A stretch of 64,000 bases of DNA, taken from contig CAZVUP010000004.1 of NCBI GenBank assembly GCA_964630365.1, positions 1,970 to 65,969 on the forward strand. Direction: 5' to 3'. Shown here in pieces: positions 25 through 15,781 of this stretch; within the stretch, counting starts at the first letter, position 1; every line of letters starts with the position of its first letter. This stretch comes from an uncultured Muribaculaceae bacterium. GTDB taxonomy: Bacteria; Bacillota_I; Bacilli_A; RF39; UBA660. The position numbers and the translations under genes are program-made. The notes beneath the pieces were generated by a model. It was not told the DNA's origin. It ran no database searches and saw only the letters and a program-made list of their open reading frames with translations.

Positions 25-1278
25 TTAAACAACTTTAGCATCAATATCACCATCACTAAATTCAATAGATATTAAATCATTTTTCTTAAGCTTTTTACTG
101 CTACTAACTACTTTACCATTAACTTTAGTCATTGTATAGCCACGTTTTAAAGTAAGTAAAGGACTAAGTGTTTCTAATTTTGATATCAACTGTAAGTATT
201 GATTACTCTTCTTATCTAATAATTTATATGGTTTTTGTAAAACATAAGAATTCTTTAATCTAATTAATTCTTTTTCTTTAATATTAGTTAAATTAGTAAG
301 ACTAAATTTTAATTTTTCTAATAAATTTGAAAAAACCATCTCTTTAGTCTGATAAATTAGTAACGGATTTTTAAATAAATTACGATTCATAATATCAGTA
401 TATTTTCTCTTCAATGATTTTATCTGATTAATAACTGAATTGTTTAATCTAATACTAATTTGACTAAGATATTTACTAACATCAGCAAGTTGTGGAACTG
501 CCATTTCAGCAGCGCCAGTAGGTGTTGGTGCTCTAAGGTCCGCTACAAAATCAGCAATTGTAAAATCTATTTCATGACCAACAGCACTGATTATTGGTGT
601 TTTAGCATTATAAATAGCTCGTGCAACTATTTCTTCATTAAATGCCCATAAATCTTCAATACTACCACCACCACGACCAACTATTAGTGTATCAAGGCCA
701 AAACTATCAGCCTTCTCAATTTGCTTAACAATATCTTCTTTAGCTGATTCTCCTTGAACTAGAGCTGGAAACAAATAAATTTCAGTCAATGGCCATCTTC
801 TTTTAATCGTTGAAATAATATCTTTTATAGCAGCACCAGTAGGAGCAGTAACCACTCCAACTTTTAAAGGAATCTTAGGTATTTGTTTCTTCCGAAGTGG
901 ATCAAATAAGCCTTCACTTTCCAATTTCTTTTTAAGTTGCTCATAAGCAATATATAAATTACCAATACCATCTTCAAGCATCTCATTAACATATATTTGA
1001 TATGCACCATTAGCTTCAAAAACACTTATCTTTCCAGTCACTAAAACTTTCATCCCATCCTGGGGAATAAACTTAACATTACGAGTAGCAGATTGAAACA
1101 TAATAGCATTAATTCGACTACCTTCATCCTTTAAAGTAAAATAAAAATGTCCTCTACTATGAGCTTTAAAATTAGATATTTCACCTTTCAAAAAAACCTC
1201 ATTTAAGTTACTATCATTATCAATTTTATATTTTATATAACGTGTAAGTTGTGTAACAGATATATATTTATCAGTCAT
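25..1278 (-). CDS. xseA: Exodeoxyribonuclease VII large subunit
   Basis: The 417-aa ORF has an N-terminal OB-fold-like segment (VFLKGEISNFKAHSRGHFYFTLKD). Its length and layout are typical of XseA, and it lies directly downstream of nusB. Confidence 0.9.
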   Translation of the reverse strand: MTDKYISVTQLTRYIKYKIDNDSNLNEVFLKGEISNFKAHSRGHFYFTLKDEGSRINAIMFQSATRNVKFIPQDGMKVLVTGKISVFEANGAYQIYVNEMLEDGIGNLYIAYEQLKKKLESEGLFDPLRKKQIPKIPLKVGVVTAPTGAAIKDIISTIKRRWPLTEIYLFPALVQGESAKEDIVKQIEKADSFGLDTLIVGRGGGSIEDLWAFNEEIVARAIYNAKTPIISAVGHEIDFTIADFVADLRAPTPTGAAEMAVPQLADVSKYLSQISIRLNNSVINQIKSLKRKYTDIMNRNLFKNPLLIYQTKEMVFSNLLEKLKFSLTNLTNIKEKELIRLKNSYVLQKPYKLLDKKSNQYLQLISKLETLSPLLTLKRGYTMTKVNGKVVSSSKKLKKNDLISIEFSDGDIDAKVV

Positions 1279-1283
1279 AATTT

Positions 1284-1685
1284 TTACTTCTCTTCCTCAT
1301 GATATATTTTATCTAAAACACCATTTATCATTTTAGTTACCGCTTCATCACTATATTTTTTTGATAATTCAATAGCCTCGTTAATAGCAACAATAGCTGG
1401 AGTTTCTGAAAATTTGAGTTCATAAGCACCAACTAAAATAATAGCTTGATCAACTTTACTTAATCTATCAAATGTCCAATCAACTAAATATTTATTAATA
1501 CATTCAATAAGATCTGTTTTATTTTTAAGCACACCATTAACTAAATCATTCACAAAATCATTTTCTATTTCTAATTGATCTTTTATTAAATCGTTAACTA
1601 TATATTCAATTTTAGCATCATCATAAATTAATGTTTGATATAAAACTTTTATAGCTATTTCTCGAAGTTCACTCCTGTTTTTCAT
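1284..1685 (-). CDS. nusB: Transcription antitermination factor NusB
   Basis: The 133-aa ORF starts RSELREIAIKVLYQ and continues with DRLSKVDQAIILVGAYEL, both typical of NusB. Confidence 0.85.
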   Translation of the reverse strand: MKNRSELREIAIKVLYQTLIYDDAKIEYIVNDLIKDQLEIENDFVNDLVNGVLKNKTDLIECINKYLVDWTFDRLSKVDQAIILVGAYELKFSETPAIVAINEAIELSKKYSDEAVTKMINGVLDKIYHEEEK

Positions 1686-1740: not shown

Positions 1741-1773
1741 AATAAAAAGATAAGTATGGCTTAAACCATACTT
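1741..1773 (-). terminator. Rho-independent terminator after the hydrolase gene
   Basis: An 8-bp stem pairs AAGTATGG (1752-1759) with CCATACTT (1766-1773) around a 6-nt loop. A T-rich run follows on the minus strand. Confidence 0.5.
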
Positions 1774-1779
1774 AAATCA

Positions 1780-3297
1780 TTATCTAGTATAAGTTTCATA
1801 ATTCGAATAATTACCATCAGCACAGTAACTATTATCATCAATACAACGTAAATATGTACGAACAAGACTATTATACTTTTCTTTCTGTAATCCAGCTAAT
1901 ATAAAAGCATGTGGCTGATCACTAACATTCCAGTAAAAATTAAATTTAGTACCAATTTCTTTTGCTTTATTTCTTACTTGAACAGCATTACGATAATTAA
2001 TAATATCATCAGTCTTACTATGAATAATTAATACTTTATCACTAGGCCTAAAACCTCTTCCATTACCAAATACATTTTCATAAGTATCAAAATTAGAAGA
2101 ATTAATACCAAAAACTCTATTATCAATTATGTATTGTTTAATAACATCATCAGTAACTTGACTATTATTTAATTCATTACCTTCATTATAGTTTTTAGCA
2201 TCAACATTAATTCGCCTATTATTAATATAATTATTTATTAAATTTTCAAACTCCGTAGTCGAAATATTTCCATTAGCTAAATCACTTATCGTTTTTTGAT
2301 CAACACTAAGACCCAATTCGTTTATAACTGATGTAATATTTCTTTCGAAGTTACCAGTTTCTTCTTCAGTATTTTGAACAAATAGATCTAAATCCATAGT
2401 ATCTCCAGCGTTTATTAGGCCCTTAATCAACTCAGTAAGTGAAACATAACCAGAGTCTTCAACTAACCCTTTAAAGTGATATTTATTTCTCAAATCAGCT
2501 GTAAAATTAGGATTAGTAACCAACTGCATACCAGTATTAGCTCCAAGAGAAACACCATGAACAACTAAAGTATCAACATTATAGTTATTATTAAGCCATT
2601 TAATCCAGTCAAAAGCATCTAAGCTTTCTAAATAACCCCACGAATTAACACCACCACTTTTACCATGACCTCTTAAATCTGGTGCTAAAATATTATATCC
2701 ACGAGTTACATAAGGGGCACCAACTTGATTATAGATTGCTTTTCCTCCTCCAGCATTACCATGCAATAACAAAACCCATTTATTACTACTTGCAGATGAA
2801 ATATAAACGTACCCATTTAATTTATCATCACCCAAACAATATTCACTACTTGAGCCATACGTTGAACAAACAGTATCTGTTCCAATTGTAACCTTTTTTG
2901 CCTGAATACTATTAGGATTAATTAAATTATCATAATCAGCAGATACTTTACCAAGTTCTTCATCAAGTACTTTCTTTAAATCTTCGGTAGATTTAATATT
3001 TTTATCACGCATTAAGTTTTTTATATCTTCTGAAGTATAACCAACAAGTTCTCCTTCAGAATAATACTTAGATAAATCAAGCATCTGACTAGCAATACTA
3101 TTTTTAGCATCATTTAAATCCATATTATTATCTAAGTTTGCAATAAAATCATCTAATTCAGTAATAAAATCATCAGTACTTTCATCAATTGTACTACTTT
3201 TTGTTGAAACGTCATTAATATTTGCTAAATACCAAACTAAAAAAAACAAGCCACAAATAACAAATATTAAAAATATATCTTTAATTCTCTCTTTCAA
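1780..3297 (-). CDS. Membrane-anchored, probably extracytoplasmic alpha/beta-fold serine hydrolase
   Basis: An N-terminal TM helix (IFLIFVICGLFFLVWYLANI) is followed by LLLHGNAGGG, the nucleophile elbow HGVSLGA, then HSKTDD and PHAF, which are candidates for a Ser-Asp-His triad. The start is TTG, 5 nt after AGGGGTGA, which directly follows the stop of the upstream kinase-like gene. Confidence 0.7.
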   Translation of the reverse strand: MKERIKDIFLIFVICGLFFLVWYLANINDVSTKSSTIDESTDDFITELDDFIANLDNNMDLNDAKNSIASQMLDLSKYYSEGELVGYTSEDIKNLMRDKNIKSTEDLKKVLDEELGKVSADYDNLINPNSIQAKKVTIGTDTVCSTYGSSSEYCLGDDKLNGYVYISSASSNKWVLLLHGNAGGGKAIYNQVGAPYVTRGYNILAPDLRGHGKSGGVNSWGYLESLDAFDWIKWLNNNYNVDTLVVHGVSLGANTGMQLVTNPNFTADLRNKYHFKGLVEDSGYVSLTELIKGLINAGDTMDLDLFVQNTEEETGNFERNITSVINELGLSVDQKTISDLANGNISTTEFENLINNYINNRRINVDAKNYNEGNELNNSQVTDDVIKQYIIDNRVFGINSSNFDTYENVFGNGRGFRPSDKVLIIHSKTDDIINYRNAVQVRNKAKEIGTKFNFYWNVSDQPHAFILAGLQKEKYNSLVRTYLRCIDDNSYCADGNYSNYETYTR

Positions 3298-3308
3298 CTA
3301 CATCACCC

Positions 3309-5243
3309 CTAATCATATATAGGTTTAGCATTAATTATCTTATATTTAACGCATACATCATTTTTTAATTTATAGACTCTTGAACAAGTATACTTTACTT
3401 CTGGCTCCTTAAAATCATCTTTAAGACATGTTACACCACTTAAAATATAACCATCAGGACAGGTATATAGTTCTAAAGCATCAGTAGTAACCTTACCATG
3501 ACACACACCATCTTTTAATTCCATTTCATCAGTACAAACATACTTCGCATTAGCATCAATAGTTGCCGAATTTGTACATTTATCACCTACTTTTGTATAT
3601 CCATCAGGACAAGTATAATTAGCAGTAGCAGGTACTGATACATTAATATCCTTAACACAATGACCTTGTCCATCAGAAGTTCCAACTAAACAGCTATATG
3701 TTGGTGTCGGTTGATAATAAAGACCACATTTTCCATCAGCATCACTATAACGATAGCCGTTAGGACAAATAGGATTATCATAATGATCATAACTTGGATT
3801 CTGTGTTAAATAACAACCACTATTAGTATAAGAACCGCCTCTAGAACATCCATATGTAGTAACTGCATTAGTAATAGATTGATTTGTTTTTGTACAAACA
3901 GTACCAGACTTCGTATATGAACTATCAGGGCAAGTATAAGACTTAGACGCATCAAAACTATTAATCGTAACACATATTGTTCCCGCAAGAACATAATTAT
4001 CAGGGCAAGTATAAACAACTGGCGCCTCCGCACTAATTTCTTGAATACACTTTTTGCCATCTAATTTAAAGTCATCAGCACACACATATGTTTTTTTAGG
4101 TTTTTTTGACTTTTTATAAACACATAAATCATTAGAGTATATATAATCATCTGGACAATAGAAATTCTCGGTAGCTGCAACTTCCTTCACTATCTTCTGA
4201 CACTTACTGCCATTAAGATCATATCCATCAGGGCACTCATAATGTCCATCAACACAAATACCATATTTATTAATTTTTCCATCTGAACATTTATATTTCA
4301 TCCGCCATAAGAATAATATACAACCAACTAAAACAATTACAAAAACAATCCAAGATAGTATTTTAAAGATATCTTTAAAAGAATATTTTTTACGTATACT
4401 AACAAGGTTATCATATAATTTGCTATTAGCAACAAGACTATCAAAATCTAAAGTATCACTAGATTTTTTTACTTTTCCTTTACTATCAACAATAGGCTGT
4501 TCTTCAATTATATTAATGCTATTTAATGCATCATACATCTTACCAACATCACTATATTGTTCACTAGAATCAATATCTAAAGCTAACATAATAATATTCA
4601 TTAAATCAGCGGATATATTCTCTAGATATGGTACTTTTTGACCAGTTTTTAACATTTCTAAAACTTCATCAGAACTCTTTAAATCAAAAGGAAGCTTACC
4701 AGCTAATAACTGATATAATAAAATACCAACTAGTGAAATATCAGTTTTAGTACTAAATGAATTATTAATACTAGCTAAAGCATCTATTCCACCAAGTTTA
4801 TAAGTAGTACCATCAACATAAATATTATCAACATTTATATTATTATGAATAATATCATTAACATGAAAAGCTGCTAAAGCTAATAAAATATTTTTTCCAA
4901 TTTCAATAATATTTTTTTCTGTATAATGATTACCAGTAAAACTTACTCCAAGGCTTTCTAAATATTCGAATATAATATAGAGTTTTCCCTCTTCAGAATC
5001 ATCAAAAACATCATAATATTTAATTATATATGGATTATTTTGAATTTTGCTAATAGCCTCTACTTCCCGAAATAGTGCGTCACGAACTTCAACATCAGAT
5101 ACACTATAATAATTTATAATTTTTAAATAAGCAGGTATTTTCCCAGTAGAAGTCAAATAATCAATTTTATACAACTCACCATAAGCTATATCTTTAATCT
5201 TCTCAATTATTGAGTATTTATTAATAATATCATTCTTCATCAT
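3309..5243 (-). CDS. Bitopic Ser/Thr-kinase-like protein (predicted pseudokinase) with a Cys-hairpin repeat ectodomain
   Basis: The N-terminal ~240 aa look like a Hanks-type kinase (AYLKII lysine, REVEAISK, DISLVGILLYQLLAGKLPF). The catalytic loop reads HNNINVDN instead of HRDxKxxN, and the DFG position reads GGID. One TM helix (ILSWIVFVIVLVGCILFLW) precedes a 330-aa Cys-rich repeat region. Confidence 0.7.
   Translation of the reverse strand: MMKNDIINKYSIIEKIKDIAYGELYKIDYLTSTGKIPAYLKIINYYSVSDVEVRDALFREVEAISKIQNNPYIIKYYDVFDDSEEGKLYIIFEYLESLGVSFTGNHYTEKNIIEIGKNILLALAAFHVNDIIHNNINVDNIYVDGTTYKLGGIDALASINNSFSTKTDISLVGILLYQLLAGKLPFDLKSSDEVLEMLKTGQKVPYLENISADLMNIIMLALDIDSSEQYSDVGKMYDALNSINIIEEQPIVDSKGKVKKSSDTLDFDSLVANSKLYDNLVSIRKKYSFKDIFKILSWIVFVIVLVGCILFLWRMKYKCSDGKINKYGICVDGHYECPDGYDLNGSKCQKIVKEVAATENFYCPDDYIYSNDLCVYKKSKKPKKTYVCADDFKLDGKKCIQEISAEAPVVYTCPDNYVLAGTICVTINSFDASKSYTCPDSSYTKSGTVCTKTNQSITNAVTTYGCSRGGSYTNSGCYLTQNPSYDHYDNPICPNGYRYSDADGKCGLYYQPTPTYSCLVGTSDGQGHCVKDINVSVPATANYTCPDGYTKVGDKCTNSATIDANAKYVCTDEMELKDGVCHGKVTTDALELYTCPDGYILSGVTCLKDDFKEPEVKYTCSRVYKLKNDVCVKYKIINAKPIYD
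3312..4304 (-). repeat. Coding repeat: 13 copies of a C-x10-12-C hairpin motif, consensus Y-(T/S)-C-P-D-G-Y-x-L-x-G-x-x-C, period ~25 aa
   Basis: Repeats were counted directly in the translation, for example CPDGYDLNGSKC, CPDDYIYSNDLC, CPDNYVLAGTIC, CPDGYTKVGDKC and CPDGYILSGVTC. All 26 Cys residues fall into 13 evenly spaced pairs. Confidence 0.85.
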
Positions 5244-7597
5244 CGTTTCGCCTCAAGTTTCTTTCTTAAAATGAAATAACAAATCAGTATAAGAGCCAAA
5301 GACATTAAACCAATTATTATTGCACTATTATAAAAATGGCTAGCCGTATACTCAAACATTGGATCATATTGACGAATATAACCAGGCACAACCTCCTGAA
5401 TCTTATCAATCAAGCCATTAAAATCATTAGTTGTCCCAAACATTTCTAATGACCATCGACATAATATAAAGGTTGAAATTTTTAAAACAGCACCTTTAAG
5501 TTCAAACAAAAGTCCACAAAACAATGACTGTGGAACTAAAAGCAAAGGCACATATGTCATAGCCATACTTTCATCTCTAGCAAAAGAAGAAACAACTAAA
5601 CCAATAGCTGATGAACCAAATATAGTAAGTGCCATAGTCGCCATCATTTCAATATTCCAATAATAAACAACACCATCACTAGGAGTATCAATAAATAATC
5701 CAAAAACATAAACAAACAATACAGCTTGAATTATAGAAAGAAAAGCAAACACTGTAATTTTAGAAAAAACATAAGAACTAAGCCGTAAATTAGCCATGTG
5801 CTCTTTCTTCAAAATAACTCTTTCCTTACATATTTCTTGAATAGAATTACCAAGACCTAAATATAAACCCGCCAAAGCAATACAAAACATAATTTCTTTA
5901 GTTCTTTCATATATTTCAAAAACTTTATCCGTTAAAATTAAGGACATCATAAAAACAATTATTGGAGATTGAATCAAAAGCAATAATAGTTGCGTTCTAT
6001 TATTAAGAATAGTCTTAATATAACGCTTAGTCAAAGTAAAATATTGACTAATAGCTGATGTATTAGTAATCTCTTTTTGTTTAACTTTTATCAAATGTTC
6101 ACTGTCTTCTAAAGAAGCAACATCTGGTAATATTTGTTCATCTAAATATTTTTGATGCCACTTATCAGGATCATCACCAATTAACAAATAAATATCTATT
6201 AAATCTTTAGTACCAAAGAAAGCATTTGCTTGGTTAGGAAAACCATCATAGCAAATTTTACCACCATCACCAAAGAAAACAACCCTATCACACAAATACA
6301 AATTAAGGGTATTGTGCGTAACTAAAATAACAGTTCTCCCACTATCAGCCATTTTTCGTAATGTAAGCATCATTCTTCTCTCATTTTCAGGATCCAAACC
6401 ACTTGTTGGTTCATCTAAGAAAAACAACCTAGGGTCCGCCAACAATTCAACAGCAATACCTGCTCTTTTTCTTTGTCCTCCAGACAAATTTCTAATAAGT
6501 ACATCTTCTTTACCAACCAAATCAACAATATCAAGAACCTCTTTTATTCTTCTTTCTTTTTCAACAGAAGTAGATTTAAGTGGCATTCTTAAATCAGCAG
6601 AATACTTAAGCATATCAATTAAAGTTAAATTAGTAAAAACAATATCATCCTGGGGAACATAACCTATGTTGTTTTTCAATTGTTCGTAGTTTTTAAACAA
6701 ATCACTTCCATTAATTAGAACTTGTCCTTTAGTAGGCTTATTAAGACCACACATCGAAAGCATTAATGTTGTCTTACCAACACCACTAGCTCCAACAAAA
6801 GCAACAAATTTACCAGGAGAAATAGTCATATTAATATCCTCAGAAATATTAACTTTTCGCCCTTTTATCCTAACTGTATTATAAATACCACGTACATCAA
6901 CACGAACACCCTTTTCAGCAAACTGATAAATTACTTCATCGCGCGAATATATAAGTTTAAGATCTTCAATTTGAATAACATCATTATCATCTAATACAAT
7001 ATTATCTTCAACTAATTTACTATTTACATATACATCTCTACCCATTGAAAATAATATATATCTATCTTTATCTTTTCTAATCTCAATATAATCTTCTACA
7101 TCACTTTTATAAAGCAACATAATATTACAACCACTGCAGTTACCAATTTTCGTAACTGTTCGATGTAAGCGATAATGATTCCACCTATGAATATTATTTC
7201 CAATCTTTACCATAAATAAGATACCATGTTTACTATGATCACTTATATTATCAATACGAATATAATCATTATCATTCAAAGTATACTCACTTATCTTCTG
7301 ATCATTAACAATAAGGCCATTTTTACTATCATTATCATATACTTTTAAAACATTATCCTTTATTACAAAAAAACCATGGAATTTTGAAACAAACAAAGAA
7401 GGAATTACAATGTCATTGGTTTTATCACGACCAAATGTAATTCTTTCTTTATGAAAATCAGATAAGACTATATTAGAAATTTCTCCATTAGCAACAATAG
7501 ATATATTAAAAACAGTATCTAAATAGTCTTTATTAGTAGAAATTTCATAATTATTATTATCATTTGAATTTTGAACATCTAATTTTTCTATATCCAT
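5240..7597 (-). CDS. FHA-domain-containing ABC transporter (fused ATPase and ABC-2/ABCG-type permease)
   Basis: FHA1 reads ITFGRDKTNDIVIPSLFVSKFHG...DSKNGLIVN, and a second degenerate FHA-like segment spans aa ~145-217. ABC motifs are Walker A GASGVGKTT, signature LSGGQRKR and Walker B LFFLDEPTSGLD, followed by a C-terminal multi-TM domain. The gene overlaps the downstream kinase-like gene by 4 nt. Confidence 0.85.
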   Translation of the reverse strand: MDIEKLDVQNSNDNNNYEISTNKDYLDTVFNISIVANGEISNIVLSDFHKERITFGRDKTNDIVIPSLFVSKFHGFFVIKDNVLKVYDNDSKNGLIVNDQKISEYTLNDNDYIRIDNISDHSKHGILFMVKIGNNIHRWNHYRLHRTVTKIGNCSGCNIMLLYKSDVEDYIEIRKDKDRYILFSMGRDVYVNSKLVEDNIVLDDNDVIQIEDLKLIYSRDEVIYQFAEKGVRVDVRGIYNTVRIKGRKVNISEDINMTISPGKFVAFVGASGVGKTTLMLSMCGLNKPTKGQVLINGSDLFKNYEQLKNNIGYVPQDDIVFTNLTLIDMLKYSADLRMPLKSTSVEKERRIKEVLDIVDLVGKEDVLIRNLSGGQRKRAGIAVELLADPRLFFLDEPTSGLDPENERRMMLTLRKMADSGRTVILVTHNTLNLYLCDRVVFFGDGGKICYDGFPNQANAFFGTKDLIDIYLLIGDDPDKWHQKYLDEQILPDVASLEDSEHLIKVKQKEITNTSAISQYFTLTKRYIKTILNNRTQLLLLLIQSPIIVFMMSLILTDKVFEIYERTKEIMFCIALAGLYLGLGNSIQEICKERVILKKEHMANLRLSSYVFSKITVFAFLSIIQAVLFVYVFGLFIDTPSDGVVYYWNIEMMATMALTIFGSSAIGLVVSSFARDESMAMTYVPLLLVPQSLFCGLLFELKGAVLKISTFILCRWSLEMFGTTNDFNGLIDKIQEVVPGYIRQYDPMFEYTASHFYNSAIIIGLMSLALILICYFILRKKLEAKR

Positions 7598-7624
7598 GAT
7601 TCACCAACAACCCTATTCTAGATA

Positions 7625-7633
7625 ATTATAACA
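7625..7633 (-). promoter_or_regulatory. Extended -10 element (TGTTATAAT) upstream of the FHA-ABC operon
   Basis: The minus strand reads TGTTATAAT about 30 nt upstream of the ATG at 7597. No good -35 box was found. Confidence 0.4.
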
Positions 7634-7701
7634 CATTGCACACAAAACAATCTACAAAAAATAATAAAAAAAAGAAATTATTTCAAAATAGATTATAAAA
7701 C

Positions 7702-10248
7702 CTACTTATCATTAATTTCTTTCTTTAAATTATATAAAAAATTAAGAGCTTCCATCGGTGTCATTTCTAAAGGATTAATATCTTTTAATTTCTTTTCAAT
7801 TAAATTTTCTTCTTTTTCATCCTTTTCCGTATACTCAAACAAACTTGTTTGTGTAAAAGTTTCTTTCTTTACACTCTTCTTCTCATATAAATTCAATATC
7901 TCATCAGCTCTATCAATTAAACTCTTCGGTAAATTTGCTAATGAAGCTACATGAATACCATAACTTTTATCAATAGCACCAGCTTTAACTTTATGTAAAA
8001 ATGTAATCGTATTATTTTCTTCAATTGCCGATACATGAACATTTTTTAGATGTTTTAAATCTTTTTCTAATATAGTAAGTTCATGATAATGTGTAGAAAA
8101 TAATGTCTTTGCCTTTATCTTATCATGAATATATTCAAGTATTGCTTGAGCAAGACTCATACCATCATAAGTAGCTGTACCACGGCCTAATTCATCAAAA
8201 AGAATTAAACTATTTTCCGTAGCTTCACTAAGAGCATAATTAGCTTCTTTCATTTCAACCATGAATGTCGACTCGCCAGCGACTAAATCATCACTAGCAC
8301 CAATTCTTGTAAAGATTTTATCAAAAATAGGCAAAACAGCACTTTTACAAGGGACAAAGCAGCCCATCTGAGCCATAATAACAGTAATAGCACATTGTCT
8401 CATATAGGTTGACTTACCAGCCATATTTGGACCAGTAATTAACAAAACATTGGTTGTTTTATCCATCACTATATCATTAGGAATATATTTATCTTTCATC
8501 ACCTGTTCAATAACAGGATGTCGACACTCTATTAATTTCAAATTTTTATCATTAGTTATTTCAGGTCTTGTAAATTTATAATTATCACTAACAATTGAAA
8601 AAGACTGTAACATATCAACTTCACTTAGTATTTTAGCAACTTTTTGAAGTTTTGAAACATAACGTTTTATAACCTCTCTAATATCCATAAACAATTTATA
8701 TTCAAGAGAGATAATCTTTTCTTCAGCACCTAAAATAATATTTTCTTTTTCTTTCAAAATTGGTGTAATAAATCTCTCACAATTAGTTAAAGTTTGTTTT
8801 CTTTCATAACCAAACTCTTCTTTTACTAACCCAACTTGTCCTTTAGAAACTTCTATGTAATATCCAAAAACCTTATTAAAACCAACCTTTAAGTTTTTAA
8901 TACCTGTTCGCTCTTTTTCAGCCTGTTCCATTTCTAAAATAAATTCCCGAGAGCCACTACTAATCTTTTTTAATTCATCAAGCTCGGCATTATAACCTTC
9001 TTTAATTAAATGTCCTTCATGCAAAGTAAATGGTGCATCCTCTAGTATTGTTTTTTCTAACAATTGATAAACTTCATCAAAAGTCTCTATTGTTTTATCA
9101 TACTGTAATTCTTCTAATATATCTTTAATTCTAGGTAAAACTTTTAAAGAACTTTTTAATTGTAATAAATCTTTAGCATTTAAATTACCATAAGTAATTC
9201 TTCCAACAAGTCTTTCTAAATCATATACATTTTCTAAAGATTTAATTAAATCATCACGTAAAATAAATTCTGTACTTAATTTTGAAATAAAATCATATCT
9301 TCTTTCAATTTCTTTTTTATCAGTCAAAGGAGAAAGAATACTGCTTTTTAAATATCTACTTCCCATTGCTGTACGGCATCTATCAAGCAGCCACAGTAAA
9401 CTATATTGGCGTTCTCTTGTTCGTAAAGTCTCAACAAGTTCTAGATTTCTTGTCGTATTAACATCAAATTCCAAATACATAGAACTCTTTTTAACTACAC
9501 AAGCTTGTAAGTGGTGCAAATCACCTTTTTTTGTATCAAGAACGTATTTCAATAAATGCTTAACAGTTTCAATAAGTCTAGTATCTTCTAAATCTTTATA
9601 AACATAACTATAATCATCAATATCTAAAGTTTCTTTTTCAATAGTAACTAAAACTTCATAATTAGTCCTTAATTTTTCAACAATTTCTCTATTGATACTA
9701 TCATTAACAATTACTTCTCTAAATCCAGCTCTTGCAACCTCTTTTAAGATCTTATCTTGTTCTCCATCGACTAACATGGCATAAACTTCACCAGTAGAAA
9801 TATCAGCATAACTAAGCCCAAAACAATAACCAAAATCATAAACATTTGCAATATAGTTATTACTCTTAGAATCAAGATTAGCATCGATTCTAGTACCCTT
9901 AGTAACTATTTGAACAACATCTCTTTTAACCATTCCTTTAGTTTCCTTAGGATCTTCTAATTGTTCACAAATCGCAACTTTATAGCCTTTATCAATTAAA
10001 GTATCAATATATGTCGCATAAGCATGATGTGGCACTCCACACATCGGAACTCGCTCATCAAGACCAGCTTGCTTCCCGGTTAAAGTTAGTTCTAATACTC
10101 TTGAAGCTAAAATAGCATCTTCAAAAAACATCTCATAAAAGTCTCCAAGCCTAAAAAAGATAATCGTATCTTCATACTTATCTTTTATCTCCATATATTG
10201 TTGCATCATTGGACTAAGTTTTTCTCTGTCTACTTCGCTTCGTTTCAT
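7702..10248 (-). CDS. mutS: DNA mismatch repair protein MutS
   Basis: Motifs include KLSPMMQQYMEIK, GDFYEMFFEDA, the Walker A ITGPNMAGKST and DELGRGT. The start is set at the ATG (MKRSEV) after GGTGA, not the upstream GTG of the ORF track. Confidence 0.95.
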   Translation of the reverse strand: MKRSEVDREKLSPMMQQYMEIKDKYEDTIIFFRLGDFYEMFFEDAILASRVLELTLTGKQAGLDERVPMCGVPHHAYATYIDTLIDKGYKVAICEQLEDPKETKGMVKRDVVQIVTKGTRIDANLDSKSNNYIANVYDFGYCFGLSYADISTGEVYAMLVDGEQDKILKEVARAGFREVIVNDSINREIVEKLRTNYEVLVTIEKETLDIDDYSYVYKDLEDTRLIETVKHLLKYVLDTKKGDLHHLQACVVKKSSMYLEFDVNTTRNLELVETLRTRERQYSLLWLLDRCRTAMGSRYLKSSILSPLTDKKEIERRYDFISKLSTEFILRDDLIKSLENVYDLERLVGRITYGNLNAKDLLQLKSSLKVLPRIKDILEELQYDKTIETFDEVYQLLEKTILEDAPFTLHEGHLIKEGYNAELDELKKISSGSREFILEMEQAEKERTGIKNLKVGFNKVFGYYIEVSKGQVGLVKEEFGYERKQTLTNCERFITPILKEKENIILGAEEKIISLEYKLFMDIREVIKRYVSKLQKVAKILSEVDMLQSFSIVSDNYKFTRPEITNDKNLKLIECRHPVIEQVMKDKYIPNDIVMDKTTNVLLITGPNMAGKSTYMRQCAITVIMAQMGCFVPCKSAVLPIFDKIFTRIGASDDLVAGESTFMVEMKEANYALSEATENSLILFDELGRGTATYDGMSLAQAILEYIHDKIKAKTLFSTHYHELTILEKDLKHLKNVHVSAIEENNTITFLHKVKAGAIDKSYGIHVASLANLPKSLIDRADEILNLYEKKSVKKETFTQTSLFEYTEKDEKEENLIEKKLKDINPLEMTPMEALNFLYNLKKEINDK

Positions 10249-10295
10249 ACTTATCACCAATCTCTATTATAACAAAAATATTTAATATAACGAAA

Positions 10296-11330: not shown

Positions 11331-12953
11331 TTATTTTCCTAATTTATAAATAAATATTGTTGAAGTAGCATCAGTACCAGTAAATCCTGAATAATTATTA
11401 CTAAGTTCTAGCATCTTCTTAACAGTTAAAGCATAGTCACTAGCTTTAGATCCATATTCAGTTAACTTGTTTATTCCTTCTTCATTGATTTTTGCTATTC
11501 CATCACTTAACAATTTAGTAGAATCAGCAACTTGTCTATTACCAGAATCAAGTAATAAAGAATTCTCATATAAATACTGAAGCCCATTTTCTAATTCAAA
11601 AGCACCGTTAGAAAGTTCATTAGTACCAGTATATGCTTGATTAGCTTTTTCCATAATAGTATTTAATAGATTTTTAACTCCTTCAAGCAAACTATAATTA
11701 TTATTTTCTAAATACTTCATTAATTTAATATTATTCTCATAAGTTTCCTTACAAACAATAAGTTTTATAATTTCTTCTGAACTAACGCCCATATTTTCAA
11801 AATAATTAATCATTTCTTCAGAAGAAGAATATTTATCAAGTTCTTTAGAGTGATAAGTATCATCTAAAGAAATAATTACATTTCTAGCCTCATTTATAAT
11901 ATCTTGATTATCATTAATAGTCTTTCTAATTTTTTGAATTTCTGCGACAATATCAGGATCCAATCTTGCCAAATCTTCCTCAGTTTCTTGACTATTAAAT
12001 AATCTATCAATAAGCTCTAAAACACCATAATAATATTCAACCTCAGAATTCAAAGTAGAAACACCATCTGCTAATTTAACAGAACCATCATAAGCTTGTT
12101 TTAAGCCATTAGAAAACTGTGTCATACCACTACTTAACATAGCAGTACCATCGCTAAGTTTATTAGCACCTAAAGAAACCTGATTCATACCATCTTGCAA
12201 AGTATTTAAAGAATTACCAAGATTAGCTACTTTGTCTAATTTAGAAACATCAATTTCATCTAACAATTTAGGACTACTAGCAATATATATATCATTAATT
12301 TTAAAACTATCAGTAGTATAATTAATAGTTATTGTATCAAAATCAATATTATTAAATTCACTTAAAGAAATATCTTTTTCTAATCCAGGAGCGGCAATAC
12401 TAGTAATTATATATTGATTACCTGTACTAACAACTTTACCATTACTTACTGAAACTTTAGAGTTTGCATCACTATCTAACATCAAAACAGCCGTACTAAC
12501 AAAAGGTGTATATAATTTAGCAGCTTGATTATAAGCAGTATTTTCCAATTCAATTCTAATTGAAATATCACCACTCTTTCCTAAAATGTTTTTAGGGTTA
12601 ATTTCTTCATTATTAAGAAAATATTTTACTTTAACTTTAATTGGTAATTCTGAATTTAATTTTCCTTCATAAAATATATCTTTACCAGTAGAATTCCAAG
12701 TTAATTTGTTACTTTCTTTTGAAAATTTTTCACGACCATTAATATTTTTTATATTTTCTAAATATGTATAGTCAACTATATCACCACTATCTAAATTAGT
12801 TAATGAAACATTAATATCAGTACTTTTTACTTCACCATTATAATTTAAATTAGAATATATCATTTCTGATTTTTCTAAAGCAAAAATAGATAATGGTTGA
12901 AATAATAAAGATATTAAACTAAAACTAATAAATATTTTTTTAAAATTCTTCAT
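11331..12953 (-). CDS. Secreted YhgE/Pip-domain-like protein (LxxG heptad repeats)
   Basis: The protein has a signal peptide (MKNFKKIFISFSLISLLFQPLSIFA). Two blocks of L-x-x-G repeats are present (LSDGTAMLSSGMTQFSNGLKQAYDGSVKLADGVSTL and LSNGAFELENGLQYL...LSDGIAKI). The gene abuts the MMPL gene. Confidence 0.5.
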   Translation of the reverse strand: MKNFKKIFISFSLISLLFQPLSIFALEKSEMIYSNLNYNGEVKSTDINVSLTNLDSGDIVDYTYLENIKNINGREKFSKESNKLTWNSTGKDIFYEGKLNSELPIKVKVKYFLNNEEINPKNILGKSGDISIRIELENTAYNQAAKLYTPFVSTAVLMLDSDANSKVSVSNGKVVSTGNQYIITSIAAPGLEKDISLSEFNNIDFDTITINYTTDSFKINDIYIASSPKLLDEIDVSKLDKVANLGNSLNTLQDGMNQVSLGANKLSDGTAMLSSGMTQFSNGLKQAYDGSVKLADGVSTLNSEVEYYYGVLELIDRLFNSQETEEDLARLDPDIVAEIQKIRKTINDNQDIINEARNVIISLDDTYHSKELDKYSSSEEMINYFENMGVSSEEIIKLIVCKETYENNIKLMKYLENNNYSLLEGVKNLLNTIMEKANQAYTGTNELSNGAFELENGLQYLYENSLLLDSGNRQVADSTKLLSDGIAKINEEGINKLTEYGSKASDYALTVKKMLELSNNYSGFTGTDATSTIFIYKLGK

Positions 12954-12954
12954 A

Positions 12955-15018
12955 TTATTTTCCCTCCTTAAATTTTGTTGTCTTCATAATAAAGCCATCA
13001 AAGATAATTAGTAGTGCTGGTAAAATTAAGATTACAACTAACATACTAATAATGCTACCTCTTGACAATAGATTACAAATACTACCTATCATATCAATCT
13101 TAGTATATAGTGAAACTCCAATAGTTGCTGCAAAGAAACATAATGCCGATGTAATAATAGATGGAACAGTTGTCGCTAAAGTCTCTTTCATTGCATCAAT
13201 CTTATTTAAAGCTTTACTATGTCTCTGTTCTAAATAAGTATTAGACATAAGAATTGCATAATCTATAGTAGCGCCAAGCTGAATGGTACCAACAACAATA
13301 GATGCAATAAATGGTAGACTCTCCCCTGTATAATAAGCACAAGCCATATTCATAAATATAGCAAATTCAATTACAAATATTAAAATTATTGGTAATCCAA
13401 AAGATTTTAAAACAAATAACATAACCAAAAATACAACAGCAATGGAAGTATAATTAACCATATGAAAATCATGATCAGCTATTGTTACTAAATCTTTCAT
13501 TAAAGCACCCTCACCTGCTAAAATAGCATTCTTATCATATTTCGAAATGATTTTATTAATTACATTTACTTGATTATTAAGTTCATCACTAGCAATTTCA
13601 TAATCAGAATTGAAAATTATTAATTGATATTTATCATTATTTATAATCTTAGAAAAATCATCAGGAAGTAAAGATAAAACAGCAGGAGATGCTAATATAT
13701 TAGGTGCTAATACAAAATCAACACCATCAACATTTTTTATTTCATCAACAAGATCTCTAACGTCACTAGCCGAAAGATTTTTATCAATAACAATCATCTC
13801 AGGAGAAATTATATTAAATTCTTTTGCTAACCTAGAATTAGCAACTTGAAATGGTAAACTGCTTGGTAAAGATTCATCTAATTTATAATAAACATCATAG
13901 CTCTTATTACCGATATAAGCTGGAATTAATAGAACTAAAAATATTGCAAATATATATTTATAATATTTAATAGAAAAATTTTGTATTCTTCTAAACTTAG
14001 GCAGAAAAACTTTATGATTAGTCTTTTCTATATATTTATCAAATGTAAGTATTAATGCTGGAAAAATCGTTAAAACACAAATTAAACCAAATAAAACACC
14101 TTTTGCCATTACTAAACCAATATCCATGCCTAAAGTTAATTTCATAGTACATAAAGCTAAGAATCCAACAAAAGTTGTTAAGCTAGATCCTAAAACAGAT
14201 TTAAAAGTCATCATAATAGCTTCTTGCATAGCTACTCTATTATCAGTATATTTTTTCTTAGCACCCAAATACTTATGATACAGAAAGATTGAAAAATCCG
14301 TAGTAACACCCAATTGCAATACAGCAGTAATTGATTTCGTAATATAACTAATTTGACCAAATATAAAATTAGTACCTAAATTATATAAAATAGCTAAACC
14401 AATATTTAAAAGCAATAATACTGGAATAATATAAGAATCAGTAGAAATAATTAAAACAATTCCACAAAGTACAGCAGCAATTACAACATATGTAAGCATT
14501 TCTTCATTAGATAAATCCCTAGTATCTAAAACCATTGAAGTCATACTACTAATACTTGAAGCATCACCTACAACATTACGAAGTTCAGTAACAGCTTCCA
14601 CTGTTGCATCAGCCGATGCATTATCATTAAATGTTACAAGAATTACACTAGTATTATCATGATATAGTTTTTTTAAAACTTCATCAGGTAACATTTCTTT
14701 AGGAATAGTCGTTCCCACAATATCAGCAACACTTACAACTTGATTAACTCCTGATATTTTTCTAATTTTATTTTCTAAGTTTAAAACTTTTCGGTTCGAT
14801 TTCATATCAGTCATAACGAAAGCATAAGCACCTAAACCAAAATCATCATCCAAAATATTTTGGCCTTTAATTGTATCAATATTATCCGGCAAGTATACTA
14901 AAATATCATAATTAATTTTTGTAGTAACAAATCCATATACAGCTGGAATAATAAGAATTAAACTTAAAATTAATATAAGAATATTATTTTTAGATATAAT
15001 ATTAGCAAATTTTTTCAT
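12955..15018 (-). CDS. MMPL/RND-superfamily membrane transporter
   Basis: The 687-aa protein has two 6-TM bundles, each preceded by a soluble loop, which is the MMPL-type organisation. Confidence 0.8.
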   Translation of the reverse strand: MKKFANIISKNNILILILSLILIIPAVYGFVTTKINYDILVYLPDNIDTIKGQNILDDDFGLGAYAFVMTDMKSNRKVLNLENKIRKISGVNQVVSVADIVGTTIPKEMLPDEVLKKLYHDNTSVILVTFNDNASADATVEAVTELRNVVGDASSISSMTSMVLDTRDLSNEEMLTYVVIAAVLCGIVLIISTDSYIIPVLLLLNIGLAILYNLGTNFIFGQISYITKSITAVLQLGVTTDFSIFLYHKYLGAKKKYTDNRVAMQEAIMMTFKSVLGSSLTTFVGFLALCTMKLTLGMDIGLVMAKGVLFGLICVLTIFPALILTFDKYIEKTNHKVFLPKFRRIQNFSIKYYKYIFAIFLVLLIPAYIGNKSYDVYYKLDESLPSSLPFQVANSRLAKEFNIISPEMIVIDKNLSASDVRDLVDEIKNVDGVDFVLAPNILASPAVLSLLPDDFSKIINNDKYQLIIFNSDYEIASDELNNQVNVINKIISKYDKNAILAGEGALMKDLVTIADHDFHMVNYTSIAVVFLVMLFVLKSFGLPIILIFVIEFAIFMNMACAYYTGESLPFIASIVVGTIQLGATIDYAILMSNTYLEQRHSKALNKIDAMKETLATTVPSIITSALCFFAATIGVSLYTKIDMIGSICNLLSRGSIISMLVVILILPALLIIFDGFIMKTTKFKEGK

Positions 15019-15126
15019 TTTATCCCCTCACGAATAATATTTTATAAAAATATAAATGTTTTAGAAGCAATAAAAAGCATAAAATGTCTGTTATCCAACA
15101 AAAAACTTCAATTTGTATAATAATTA

Positions 15127-15174
15127 TCCTACATTTGTAGGTTATATTTACAATTGTCCAAAAAAGTAATATAA
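15127..15174 (+). promoter_or_regulatory. Candidate TetR operator palindrome plus promoter of the tetR-family gene
   Basis: A perfect inverted repeat CCTACA-tt-TGTAGG (15127-15140) lies just upstream of TTTACA (15146-15151). A 17-nt spacer and TATAAT (15169-15174) follow. The element sits between the divergent tetR and MMPL genes. Confidence 0.5.
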
Positions 15175-15193
15175 TTTCTATAGGTGATATTAT

Positions 15194-15781
15194 ATGCAAA
15201 AAAAAGAAGATTTACGAATTAGAAAAACAAAAGCTAATCTTTATAAAGGACTACTACAATTAATGGAAGAAAAAACATTTGAAGATATAAAAGTAACTGA
15301 TATTTGTAACATTTCATTAATAAATAGATCAACATTTTATGATCACTTTAATGATAAATATGAATTACTTGCTGCATTCCTTGAAGATTTAAAGAAAGAA
15401 TTAATAGCTCATCTAGAAGTAAAAAAAGAAGTCACAAGTATCAAAGAATATTATCTTGAGTTAATAAAACTTCTAATTGATTACACTGAAAAGAATATTA
15501 ATTTATACTCATCTATATCTATTGTCAAAAAAAATAATAATTCAATTGCCTATGATATGATGCTAGATGCAGCTGAAGAAGCAGTTACTAATCACTTAAA
15601 AGAAAATTACAAAAACAACTCAAATGTTCCAATAGAATTAATTTCATTATTCTATGTTAGTGGAGTTATCAAAATATGCCTTGAATTTTTAAAAGAACCA
15701 ACAAAATATAATCATGATGAACTATTAAGTTATATAGAAAAACTTATTCCCGACATAGATTATTTAGAACCAATAAAATAA
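15194..15781 (+). CDS. TetR/AcrR-family transcriptional regulator
   Basis: An N-terminal HTH (FEDIKVTDICNISLINRSTFYDHFNDKYELL) is typical of TetR. The gene is divergent from the MMPL operon. Confidence 0.85.
   Translation: MQKKEDLRIRKTKANLYKGLLQLMEEKTFEDIKVTDICNISLINRSTFYDHFNDKYELLAAFLEDLKKELIAHLEVKKEVTSIKEYYLELIKLLIDYTEKNINLYSSISIVKKNNNSIAYDMMLDAAEEAVTNHLKENYKNNSNVPIELISLFYVSGVIKICLEFLKEPTKYNHDELLSYIEKLIPDIDYLEPIK

Follow-up and report, generated by a model that had tools for sequence, protein, structure and literature searches.

Organisation of the locus

We analysed a locus of three genes, encoding a tandem-FHA ABC exporter, a kinase-like receptor and a putative external hydrolase, on contig CAZVUP010000004.1 (assembly GCA_964630365.1) of an uncultured bacterium of the Bacilli_A lineage RF39. 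The whole stretch of DNA analysed, positions 1,970 to 65,969 of the contig, is 64 kb long and is called the window; all coordinates below refer to it. The genes lie head to tail on the minus strand, as do all of their features given below, and are flanked by mutS (10260..7702) and nusB/xseA (1685..25). The ABC gene (7597..5240) is an open reading frame (ORF) of 785 amino acids (aa) for an ABCG-like ABC-2 exporter, in which two FHA domains are followed by a nucleotide-binding domain (NBD) and a transmembrane domain (TMD). The kinase-like gene (5243..3309, 644 aa) encodes a single-pass receptor with a predicted cytoplasmic pseudokinase domain and a Cys-rich ectodomain, and the third gene (3297..1780, 505 aa, TTG start) a predicted extracytoplasmic alpha/beta serine hydrolase.

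An earlier reading made from the DNA alone (the sequence-only reading) had described the three genes as tightly linked, and the ORFs and junctions bear this out. The stop of the ABC gene and the start of the kinase-like gene share an ATGA at 5243-5240, an overlap of 4 nt, and the TTG of the hydrolase gene, preceded by AGGGGTGA, lies 11 nt past the kinase-like stop, both as had been claimed. Five nucleotides past the hydrolase stop stands a terminator-like hairpin with a T-run (1751..1774, the T's reaching to about 1741); in a terminator scan of the locus it was the sole intergenic hairpin of this kind, in line with the earlier statement that the locus has one good terminator, and the other two matches fall inside the ABC coding sequence. 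The 104 nt that separate mutS from the ABC gene (7598..7701) contain a GGTGA ribosome-binding site and an extended -10 element, TGtTATAAT (7633-7625), which is a promoter candidate; no consensus -35 was recognised in the gap, and a consensus promoter scan gave the element no score. From the sequence we infer that the trio is co-transcribed. Pfam profile searches, which had been proposed along with the original description, matched FHA, ABC_tran, ABC2_membrane, Pkinase and Abhydrolase_1, and since the multi-domain profile matches reach E-values of 1e-16 to 1e-31 and the synteny is conserved, the domain assignments are not due to chance.

The exporter and its two FHA domains

Pfam matches in the ABC protein comprise FHA (53-115, 60.8 bits), ABC_tran (253-399) and ABC2_membrane (518-700). 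All ATPase motifs are intact, namely the Walker A GASGVGKTT, the signature LSGGQRKR, the Walker B LFFLDEPTSGLD and the H-loop VTHN, and about 7,900 homologues were found at E <= 1e-10. The first FHA domain, FHA1 (7253..7441; aa 53-115, PF00498), carries the complete signature that had been read from the sequence, with GR at 56-57, SxxH at 71-74 and NG at 93-94; its best match in the PDB is FHA-2 of Rv1747 (6CAH, E = 4e-7). The GR, SxxH and NG residues are retained in 119 of 120 ABC homologues, and all are kept in the proteins encoded next to receptors with a degraded kinase domain (window, L005, L002 and P0007). The phosphothreonine pocket is thus intact, and FHA1 is predicted to be a working phosphothreonine reader.

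The second FHA domain, FHA2 (6932..7195; aa about 135-222), had been described as an FHA-like segment lacking the signature, and indeed IGN replaces IGR and neither SxxH nor NG is present. It nevertheless aligns by hhalign with the canonical FHA2 of L016-L018 at a probability of 98.3% (88% with FHA1), and this profile comparison marks it as a true FHA fold whose binding residues have degenerated. Loss of the Arg is confined to the 13 closest ABC clusters. Among them, L012, L014, L020 and L021 pair a degenerate FHA2 with catalytic-looking kinases, and decay of FHA2 therefore predates the death of the kinase described below. In the alignment the two FHA domains of the window protein are almost contiguous, and no conserved Thr phospho-acceptor was found in the N-terminal region of the aligned ABC homologues.

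A kinase fold that has lost its catalytic residues

The kinase-fold domain of the receptor (4509..5222; aa about 8-245), delimited by profile and structure model, matches Pkinase (PF00069) at 61.8 bits against a cut-off of 31.7, the match being split over two stretches. An AlphaFold2 (AF2) model of residues 1-300 has a mean predicted local distance difference test score (pLDDT) of 81.3 and a predicted template modelling score (pTM) of 0.79, and its top Foldseek matches are Nek2 and Staphylococcus aureus PknB/Stk1 (E = 1e-15, template modelling (TM) score 0.62-0.77; 0.69-0.77 for PknB/Stk1). On this model, the cytoplasmic domain has a Hanks-kinase fold.

The catalytic residues are another matter, and here the substitutions noticed in the sequence-only reading (HNN for HRD, Asn for the loop Lys, GGID for GDFG and a one-Gly loop) all held. 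In the catalytic loop HNNINVDN (4824..4847; aa 133-140), Asn stands in place of the catalytic Asp and again of the loop Lys, while the terminal Asn (N140) is kept; phmmer aligns this loop to HRDLKPAN of Nek2 and StkP in the PDB, and in the family alignment it falls on H[RSKGTAN]D[IVL]K[PF]xN of 18 relatives. GGID takes the place of GDFG (4782..4793; aa 151-154), with GID at 152-154 in the DFG position, so that Gly replaces the DFG Asp; phmmer aligns it to GDFG of Nek2 and opens a long gap against StkP at the activation segment. At the two places where a catalytic and a Mg-binding Asp would stand, the alignment with canonical orthologues accordingly gives Asn and Gly-Ile-Asp. About 17 residues are then missing by comparison with the GTPxYMAPE of the relatives, so that activation loop, P+1 loop and APE are all gone; at this position the AF2 model shows no more than a short loop. 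The Gly-rich loop (G-loop), IKDIAYG, has a single Gly and an Asp where the second Gly is expected. The beta3 Lys (K41) and the alphaC Glu (E60), listed before as retained, are present together with N140; K41 and N140 are invariant in a 20-sequence family alignment, which does not include the truncated relative L019. Taken at the level of sequence, the kinase domain would lack catalysis and be a pseudokinase.

The juxtamembrane threonine

Between the kinase domain and the membrane lies the motif SSDTLDFD (4440..4463; aa 261-268), whose Thr, T264, is the sole invariant column between M215 and C319 in 20 aligned receptors. In a second family alignment every one of the 21 sequences has I, V, L or F at position +3, and the motif reads x-[DEN]-x-T-[ILVF]-x-[ILVF] (TxxΦ, with Φ = I/L/V/F). 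The receptors with a degraded kinase domain have SDTLDF, TDTLNF or SDTFDI, and both T264 and the +3 hydrophobic residue are retained even though the juxtamembrane segment is only 24-46% identical. The stretch is modelled with low confidence by AF2 and is probably disordered around T264. The pattern pTxx[I/L/V] is the classic ligand class of many FHA domains, and T264 is a likely docking site for FHA1.

Membrane helix, ectodomain and hydrolase

A single transmembrane helix (4305..4361; aa 295-313), with the hydrophobic sequence ILSWIVFVIVLVGCILFLW, aligns with a hydrophobic segment in all relatives. It is followed by the ectodomain (3312..4292; aa 318-644), where the Cys spacing defines 13 C-x10-C beta-hairpin modules with 26 Cys. 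The AF2 model of this part is an all-beta, elongated rod (pLDDT 86.8, pTM 0.34), and we predict a rod of 13 disulfide-stapled hairpins. No Pfam family was matched, with only sub-threshold cEGF-like fragments at E <= 10, and a Foldseek search of the PDB gave no meaningful match (best E = 0.046, TM score < 0.1). The ectodomain is the best-conserved part of the receptor. Similar C-x10-C hairpin repeats recur in very long proteins (P0139, P0140, P0141, P0144 and P0149; 0.8-4 kb), and five of eight C-x10-C repeat proteins tested end in the TraN domain (PF06986) of F-type type IV secretion systems.

The hydrolase matches Abhydrolase_1 at 174-263 (40.6 bits, cut-off 25.8), Hydrolase_4 and Peptidase_S15. 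Its motifs stand in canonical order, with the oxyanion LLLHGN, the nucleophile HGVSLGA (Ser250), the Asp in SKTDD and the His in QPHAF; the oxyanion motif and the Ser-Asp-His triad are conserved in all eight homologues, and a hydrophobic membrane anchor is found at aa 8-24 of the N-terminus. The description as a membrane-anchored extracellular serine hydrolase, given before from the sequence alone, thus agrees with anchor, triad and profile match. The nearest solved relatives are the esterase 5G59 and the phospholipase-type alpha/beta hydrolase domain of MARTX toxins (6IMP). The enzyme is probably an external esterase or lipase-like protein acting on or alongside the exported substrate, and the combination of an ABCG-like exporter, an external esterase and a surface receptor suggests export and remodelling of an envelope lipid or glycolipid.

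Conservation of the trio

A word-index search with the receptor returned three true relatives (96%, 61% and 50% identity), and the same search with a 20-sequence profile found no others. About a dozen further full-length members came from an exhaustive profile search covering 1.84 billion representatives, which brought the family representatives reached to about 15. A search of genome contigs with the pseudokinase matched only an unrelated Pirellulaceae kinase, and a scan of metagenome contigs with the family profile, with generic kinase motifs as patterns, returned only unrelated soil kinases of 21-31% identity.

The three closest receptor relatives are all found in the order mutS-ABC-receptor-hydrolase-nusB. 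Neighbourhoods were then opened at decreasing identity of the ABC protein. At 62-63% (L014, L020, L021) the trio still occupies the mutS/nusB site, at 58% (L012) it lies between LemA and RelA, at 50% (L017) the same trio is present, and at 48% (L016 and L018) the hydrolase gene comes first. Altogether, the trio is present in 10 of the 10 relative loci that are complete on their contig, in three contexts (mutS-nusB, LemA-RelA and other) and two gene orders, and a kinase or pseudokinase gene adjoins the ABC gene in all 11 relative loci when the truncated L019 is counted. Conservation, on which the earlier interpretation had been made to depend, therefore extends beyond the mutS-nusB site. Judged by these neighbourhoods, the trio is an envelope module widespread among uncultured Bacilli of ruminants and the gut.

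Apparent loss of catalysis in one clade

The HNN motif and the activation-segment deletion occur together only in the window, P0001, P0002, P0003 and L019, which represent four sampled lineages and are called here the dead clade, whereas 18 of the 18 relatives outside it keep HxD, DF[GSN] and [AS]PE in joint alignments. In a tree built from the ectodomain only, the full-length dead members (window, P0002, P0003) are monophyletic and nested among L014, L012, P0125 and P0129, and the catalytic-looking sisters L014, L020 and L021 occupy the same mutS-nusB site as the window. Because the dead clade is nested among catalytic-looking orthologues at the same site, catalysis appears to have been lost in a single, recent event at that site.

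Within the clade, degradation has gone on unevenly. The DFG position reads GDFD in P0002 and P0003, where the Asp is kept, GLFD in L019 and GGID in the window; the alphaC Glu is lost in P0002 and P0003 (Q or S at E60) and in L019, and the beta3 Lys in L019. The latter (3027-3572; ABC protein 70% identical) is even more degenerate, with three alphaC residues deleted, and its contig ends inside the receptor gene, before the juxtamembrane motif. On these alignments, such piecemeal loss of further catalytic residues is the signature of a released catalytic constraint. The receptor ORF is nevertheless intact in the three dead lineages with full-length sequence. The ratio of nonsynonymous to synonymous substitution rates (dN/dS) against P0002 is 0.155 for the ectodomain and about 0.36 for the kinase domain, and over the pairs compared the kinase domain gives about 0.24-0.44, values that are rough as dS is saturated (about 1.2) for informative pairs. 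By these estimates selection continues to act on the pseudokinase gene. A G-loop variant, KIKD[IL]xYG[EQ]LYKI, is also strongly conserved in the three full-length dead lineages (L019 reads LKSFNDSD). Amino acid identity between the window and L005 is 94% for mutS, 83% for nusB, 81% for the ABC protein, 73% for the ectodomain, 67% for the hydrolase and 49% for the kinase domain, which is the fastest-evolving part of the locus and whose identity relative to the ABC partner is below that in catalytic pairs.

Outside the dead clade, many of the members that keep the catalytic Asp (P0127-P0138, L018) are non-RD (HGD, HTD, HND, HKD, HAD), and their G-loops are poor (ISKNNIS, LSSSTA, NDSGSFS). The whole receptor family may, from these sequences, be weakly active or be drifting to pseudokinases more than once.

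Proposed mechanism and its rivals

We propose that the three genes encode one envelope module of exporter, receptor and external hydrolase. The pseudokinase would act as a docking and allosteric scaffold, T264 would be phosphorylated in trans by a kinase encoded elsewhere (e.g. of the PrkC type), and FHA1 of the exporter would bind the resulting pT264, whereby ligand-dependent changes in the receptor could be coupled to the activity or assembly of the exporter. Catalytic members of the family could make pT264 by autophosphorylation, whereas the window lineage would need another kinase; bacterial kinases reportedly cross-phosphorylate one another (PMC4166321). We regard this scaffold, with T264 trans-phosphorylated and bound by FHA1, as the best reading of the locus, although we hold it with slightly less than even confidence. 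Phosphorylation of T264 and its contact with FHA1 are both deduced from motif conservation. The original interpretation, a phosphothreonine reader genetically coupled to an apparently dead kinase, is supported by the locus, and neither the inspection of the catalytic residues nor that of the neighbourhoods contradicted it.

Several points weigh against the proposal. A family hidden Markov model search revealed no second kinase within the 64-kb window, which has no PP2C phosphatase either, and the trans-acting kinase is hypothetical. The juxtamembrane sequence covers only three lineages of the dead clade, which makes the argument from T264 retention thin, and the conservation of T264 may have nothing to do with phosphorylation. 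Saturation of dS blurs the estimate of selection, and read-through from mutS is possible in place of transcription from the candidate promoter.

The main rival, doubtful in our view, is a scaffold independent of phosphate, in which the pseudokinase lobes bind the FHA region constitutively, no kinase is needed and T264 is structural. There is a structural precedent for it, as YukC contacts FHA2 of YukB through its alphaC helix and inter-lobe loops in the cryo-EM structure of the core of the Bacillus subtilis T7SSb (secretion system of type VIIb; PMC12637312). Retention of FHA2 as a domain despite its lost phosphothreonine-binding residues fits such a contact, and the conserved G-loop variant of the three full-length lineages, from which L019 differs, suggests a new constrained surface. 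Against this, the dead clade fully keeps the phosphothreonine pocket of FHA1 and the TxxΦ motif is invariant, and the decay of FHA2, being older than the death of the kinase, was no adaptation to a pseudokinase. Both modes might also operate together, the degenerate FHA2 contacting the kinase lobe while FHA1 binds pT264.

Less likely than this rival are residual catalysis and simple decay. Residual non-canonical activity has been reported for some proteins classed as pseudokinases, and the HNN domain might keep a weak or non-canonical phosphotransfer or another nucleotide-dependent activity. The invariance of K41 and N140 in the alignment that leaves L019 aside, E60 in the window, the DFG Asp of P0002 and P0003 and the atypical character of the whole family, in which members that have the Asp still show non-RD HxD motifs and poor G-loops, could all be read in this way, as could the alternative ATP-binding modes noted for some bacterial pseudokinases (PMC12599244). 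We consider such an enzyme improbable, since the window protein has neither the catalytic Asp nor the DFG Asp, carries an Asp at the G-loop position from which a Gly would face the phosphates and is without the activation and P+1 loops that would hold a substrate, and since the extra losses vary by lineage (L019 without its beta3 Lys; P0002, P0003 and L019 without the alphaC Glu). It is equally improbable that the cytoplasmic domain is a roleless, decaying relic on a receptor of which only the ectodomain and anchor, or nothing, is functional: the fast evolution of the kinase domain (49% against L005, and lower relative to the ABC partner than in catalytic pairs) would agree with this, but three full-length lineages at 50-96% identity to the window show no frameshifts or stops, dN/dS stays well below 1, the fold is modelled with confidence, HNN and KDIxYG persist as motifs specific to the clade and the start codon still overlaps the ABC stop.

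Returning to the trans-phosphorylated scaffold, the same evidence allows a broader evolutionary reading, which we entertain with more reserve than that scaffold itself. The module may have been rewired stepwise at one site, from two working FHA domains and a catalytic kinase, to one working FHA domain and a catalytic kinase, to one working FHA domain and a dead kinase. The dead receptor, sensing an envelope ligand through its ectodomain, would then gate the exporter and the esterase without phosphotransfer of its own, either as a substrate and scaffold for a housekeeping kinase or purely allosterically. If this is true, bacteria would have in this module an equivalent of animal and plant receptor pseudokinases, with direct coupling to a transporter.

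Other features of the window and of related contigs

Upstream of YitT and mutS, the window contains a conserved pair (11331-15781) of a 540-aa protein without a Pfam match and an MMPL/RND-like transporter (687 aa). A divergent ORF of 195 aa adjoins this pair; in L002, where the synteny is the same, it corresponds to a protein with a TetR C-terminal domain. The sole Rfam match in the window is a ribosomal protein L21 leader (RF00559, 61981-62050, minus strand; 38 bits, gathering score 36). In the related contig L009, whose ABC protein is identical to that of the window, mutS (349-2896) is called as two ORFs of 694 and 152 aa, by frameshift or assembly error. A few kb downstream of the trio in L002 (15985-18819) lie spoIVB (Peptidase_S55), spoIIGA (Peptidase_U4) and a sigma-E-like gene, which suggests that the host lineage forms endospores.

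Comparison with known systems

Literature searches found no description of a trio of FHA-ABC exporter, receptor (pseudo)kinase and hydrolase, and nothing like the window receptor appears among the bacterial pseudokinase families covered by a 2025 review. Bacterial pseudokinases as such are recognised but almost untested experimentally (PMC12599244). The sequence-only reading had known of no description of the combination in Bacillota. This stands for the specific trio, but not for a membrane pseudokinase paired with a tandem-FHA ATPase, which is known from YukC/EssB (PMC12637312). To our knowledge, most known bacterial pseudokinase families are ancient and uniformly dead, and the origin of bacterial pseudokinases is hidden for that reason. 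On the pseudokinase reading, the window lineage would capture the conversion of a bacterial kinase to a signalling scaffold without catalysis. Moreover, catalytic-looking and dead orthologues with the same trio and site, in which the reader and the likely docking Thr are preserved, offer matched pairs for experiments.

Similarities to anti-phage defence systems are partial and generic. PADLOC pointed to mad6, PD-T4-6 and mad3, the hydrolase was unmatched, the locus lies between core genes and the NCBIfam MADS6 match is a generic domain similarity far below its cut-off; a defence system was thus rejected. The PASTA kinases (PknB/Stk1/PrkC/StkP) are the closest structural matches and share the layout of an N-terminal cytoplasmic kinase fold, a single membrane-spanning helix and an ectodomain built of repeats. 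The window receptor differs from them in having C-x10-C hairpins and no PASTA repeats and in the loss of its catalytic residues, and PASTA kinase identity was rejected (NCBIfam PknB_PASTA_kin 51.9, cut-off 450). In PknB itself, a juxtamembrane Thr recruits FhaA (PMC6180346).

Two pseudokinase systems offer mechanistic parallels, although the window receptor is outside both the EssB/YukC and the ActPs3 families. In the T7SSb of Bacillota, YukC/EssB is a single-pass membrane pseudokinase that has an extracellular domain and whose activation loop is attenuated, and its partner YukB/EssC is a tandem-FHA membrane ATPase (PMC12637312). YukB/EssC is of the FtsK/SpoIIIE type, in contrast to the ABC exporter of the window, whose FHA1 keeps the phosphothreonine pocket. 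Membership was rejected, as no EssB/YukC Pfam family was matched at E <= 0.1, and the system is retained as a mechanistic analogue; the genes near the trio are mutS, YitT, nusB and xseA, with no WXG100, EsaA or YukD genes among them. In mycobacteria, a Thr outside the core of the MviN pseudokinase (ActPs3 family) is phosphorylated by PknB, whereupon the FHA domain of FhaA is recruited (PMC12599244, PMC6180346). We propose the same mechanism for the window module, and MviN is likewise a membrane-tethered pseudokinase with a deleted activation loop. However, the MviN pseudokinase is fused to a flippase (MurJ) and FhaA is separate and soluble; MviN shows decay in all three catalytic motifs and belongs to an old actinobacterial family. 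The window pseudokinase is instead a recent offshoot of catalytic-looking receptors, and its FHA domain sits on an ABC exporter.

The arrangement to which the locus had been likened from the start is that of Rv1747 and PknF of Mycobacterium tuberculosis, in which FHA-1 of Rv1747 recruits PknF and is the important reader, FHA-2 being dispensable or weaker (PMC3138270). As an architecture the likeness holds: tandem N-terminal FHA domains are followed by the NBD and TMD of an ABC-2 exporter, and the adjacent, co-oriented gene encodes a kinase. It rests on this layout and on the FHA-level match to 6CAH, the comparison being one of architecture and domains and not of whole-protein descent. What does not carry over is the long disordered linker between FHA1 and FHA2 with the PknF targets T150 and T208 (PMC3138270), which is absent in the window, where the only invariant Thr of the module sits on the receptor. 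Furthermore, the window partner is apparently catalytically dead and has a large Cys-rich ectodomain, a third gene for an external hydrolase belongs to the module, and the host is a low-GC, uncultured, Bacillus-class bacterium. The module thus extends the Rv1747/PknF paradigm beyond Actinobacteria.

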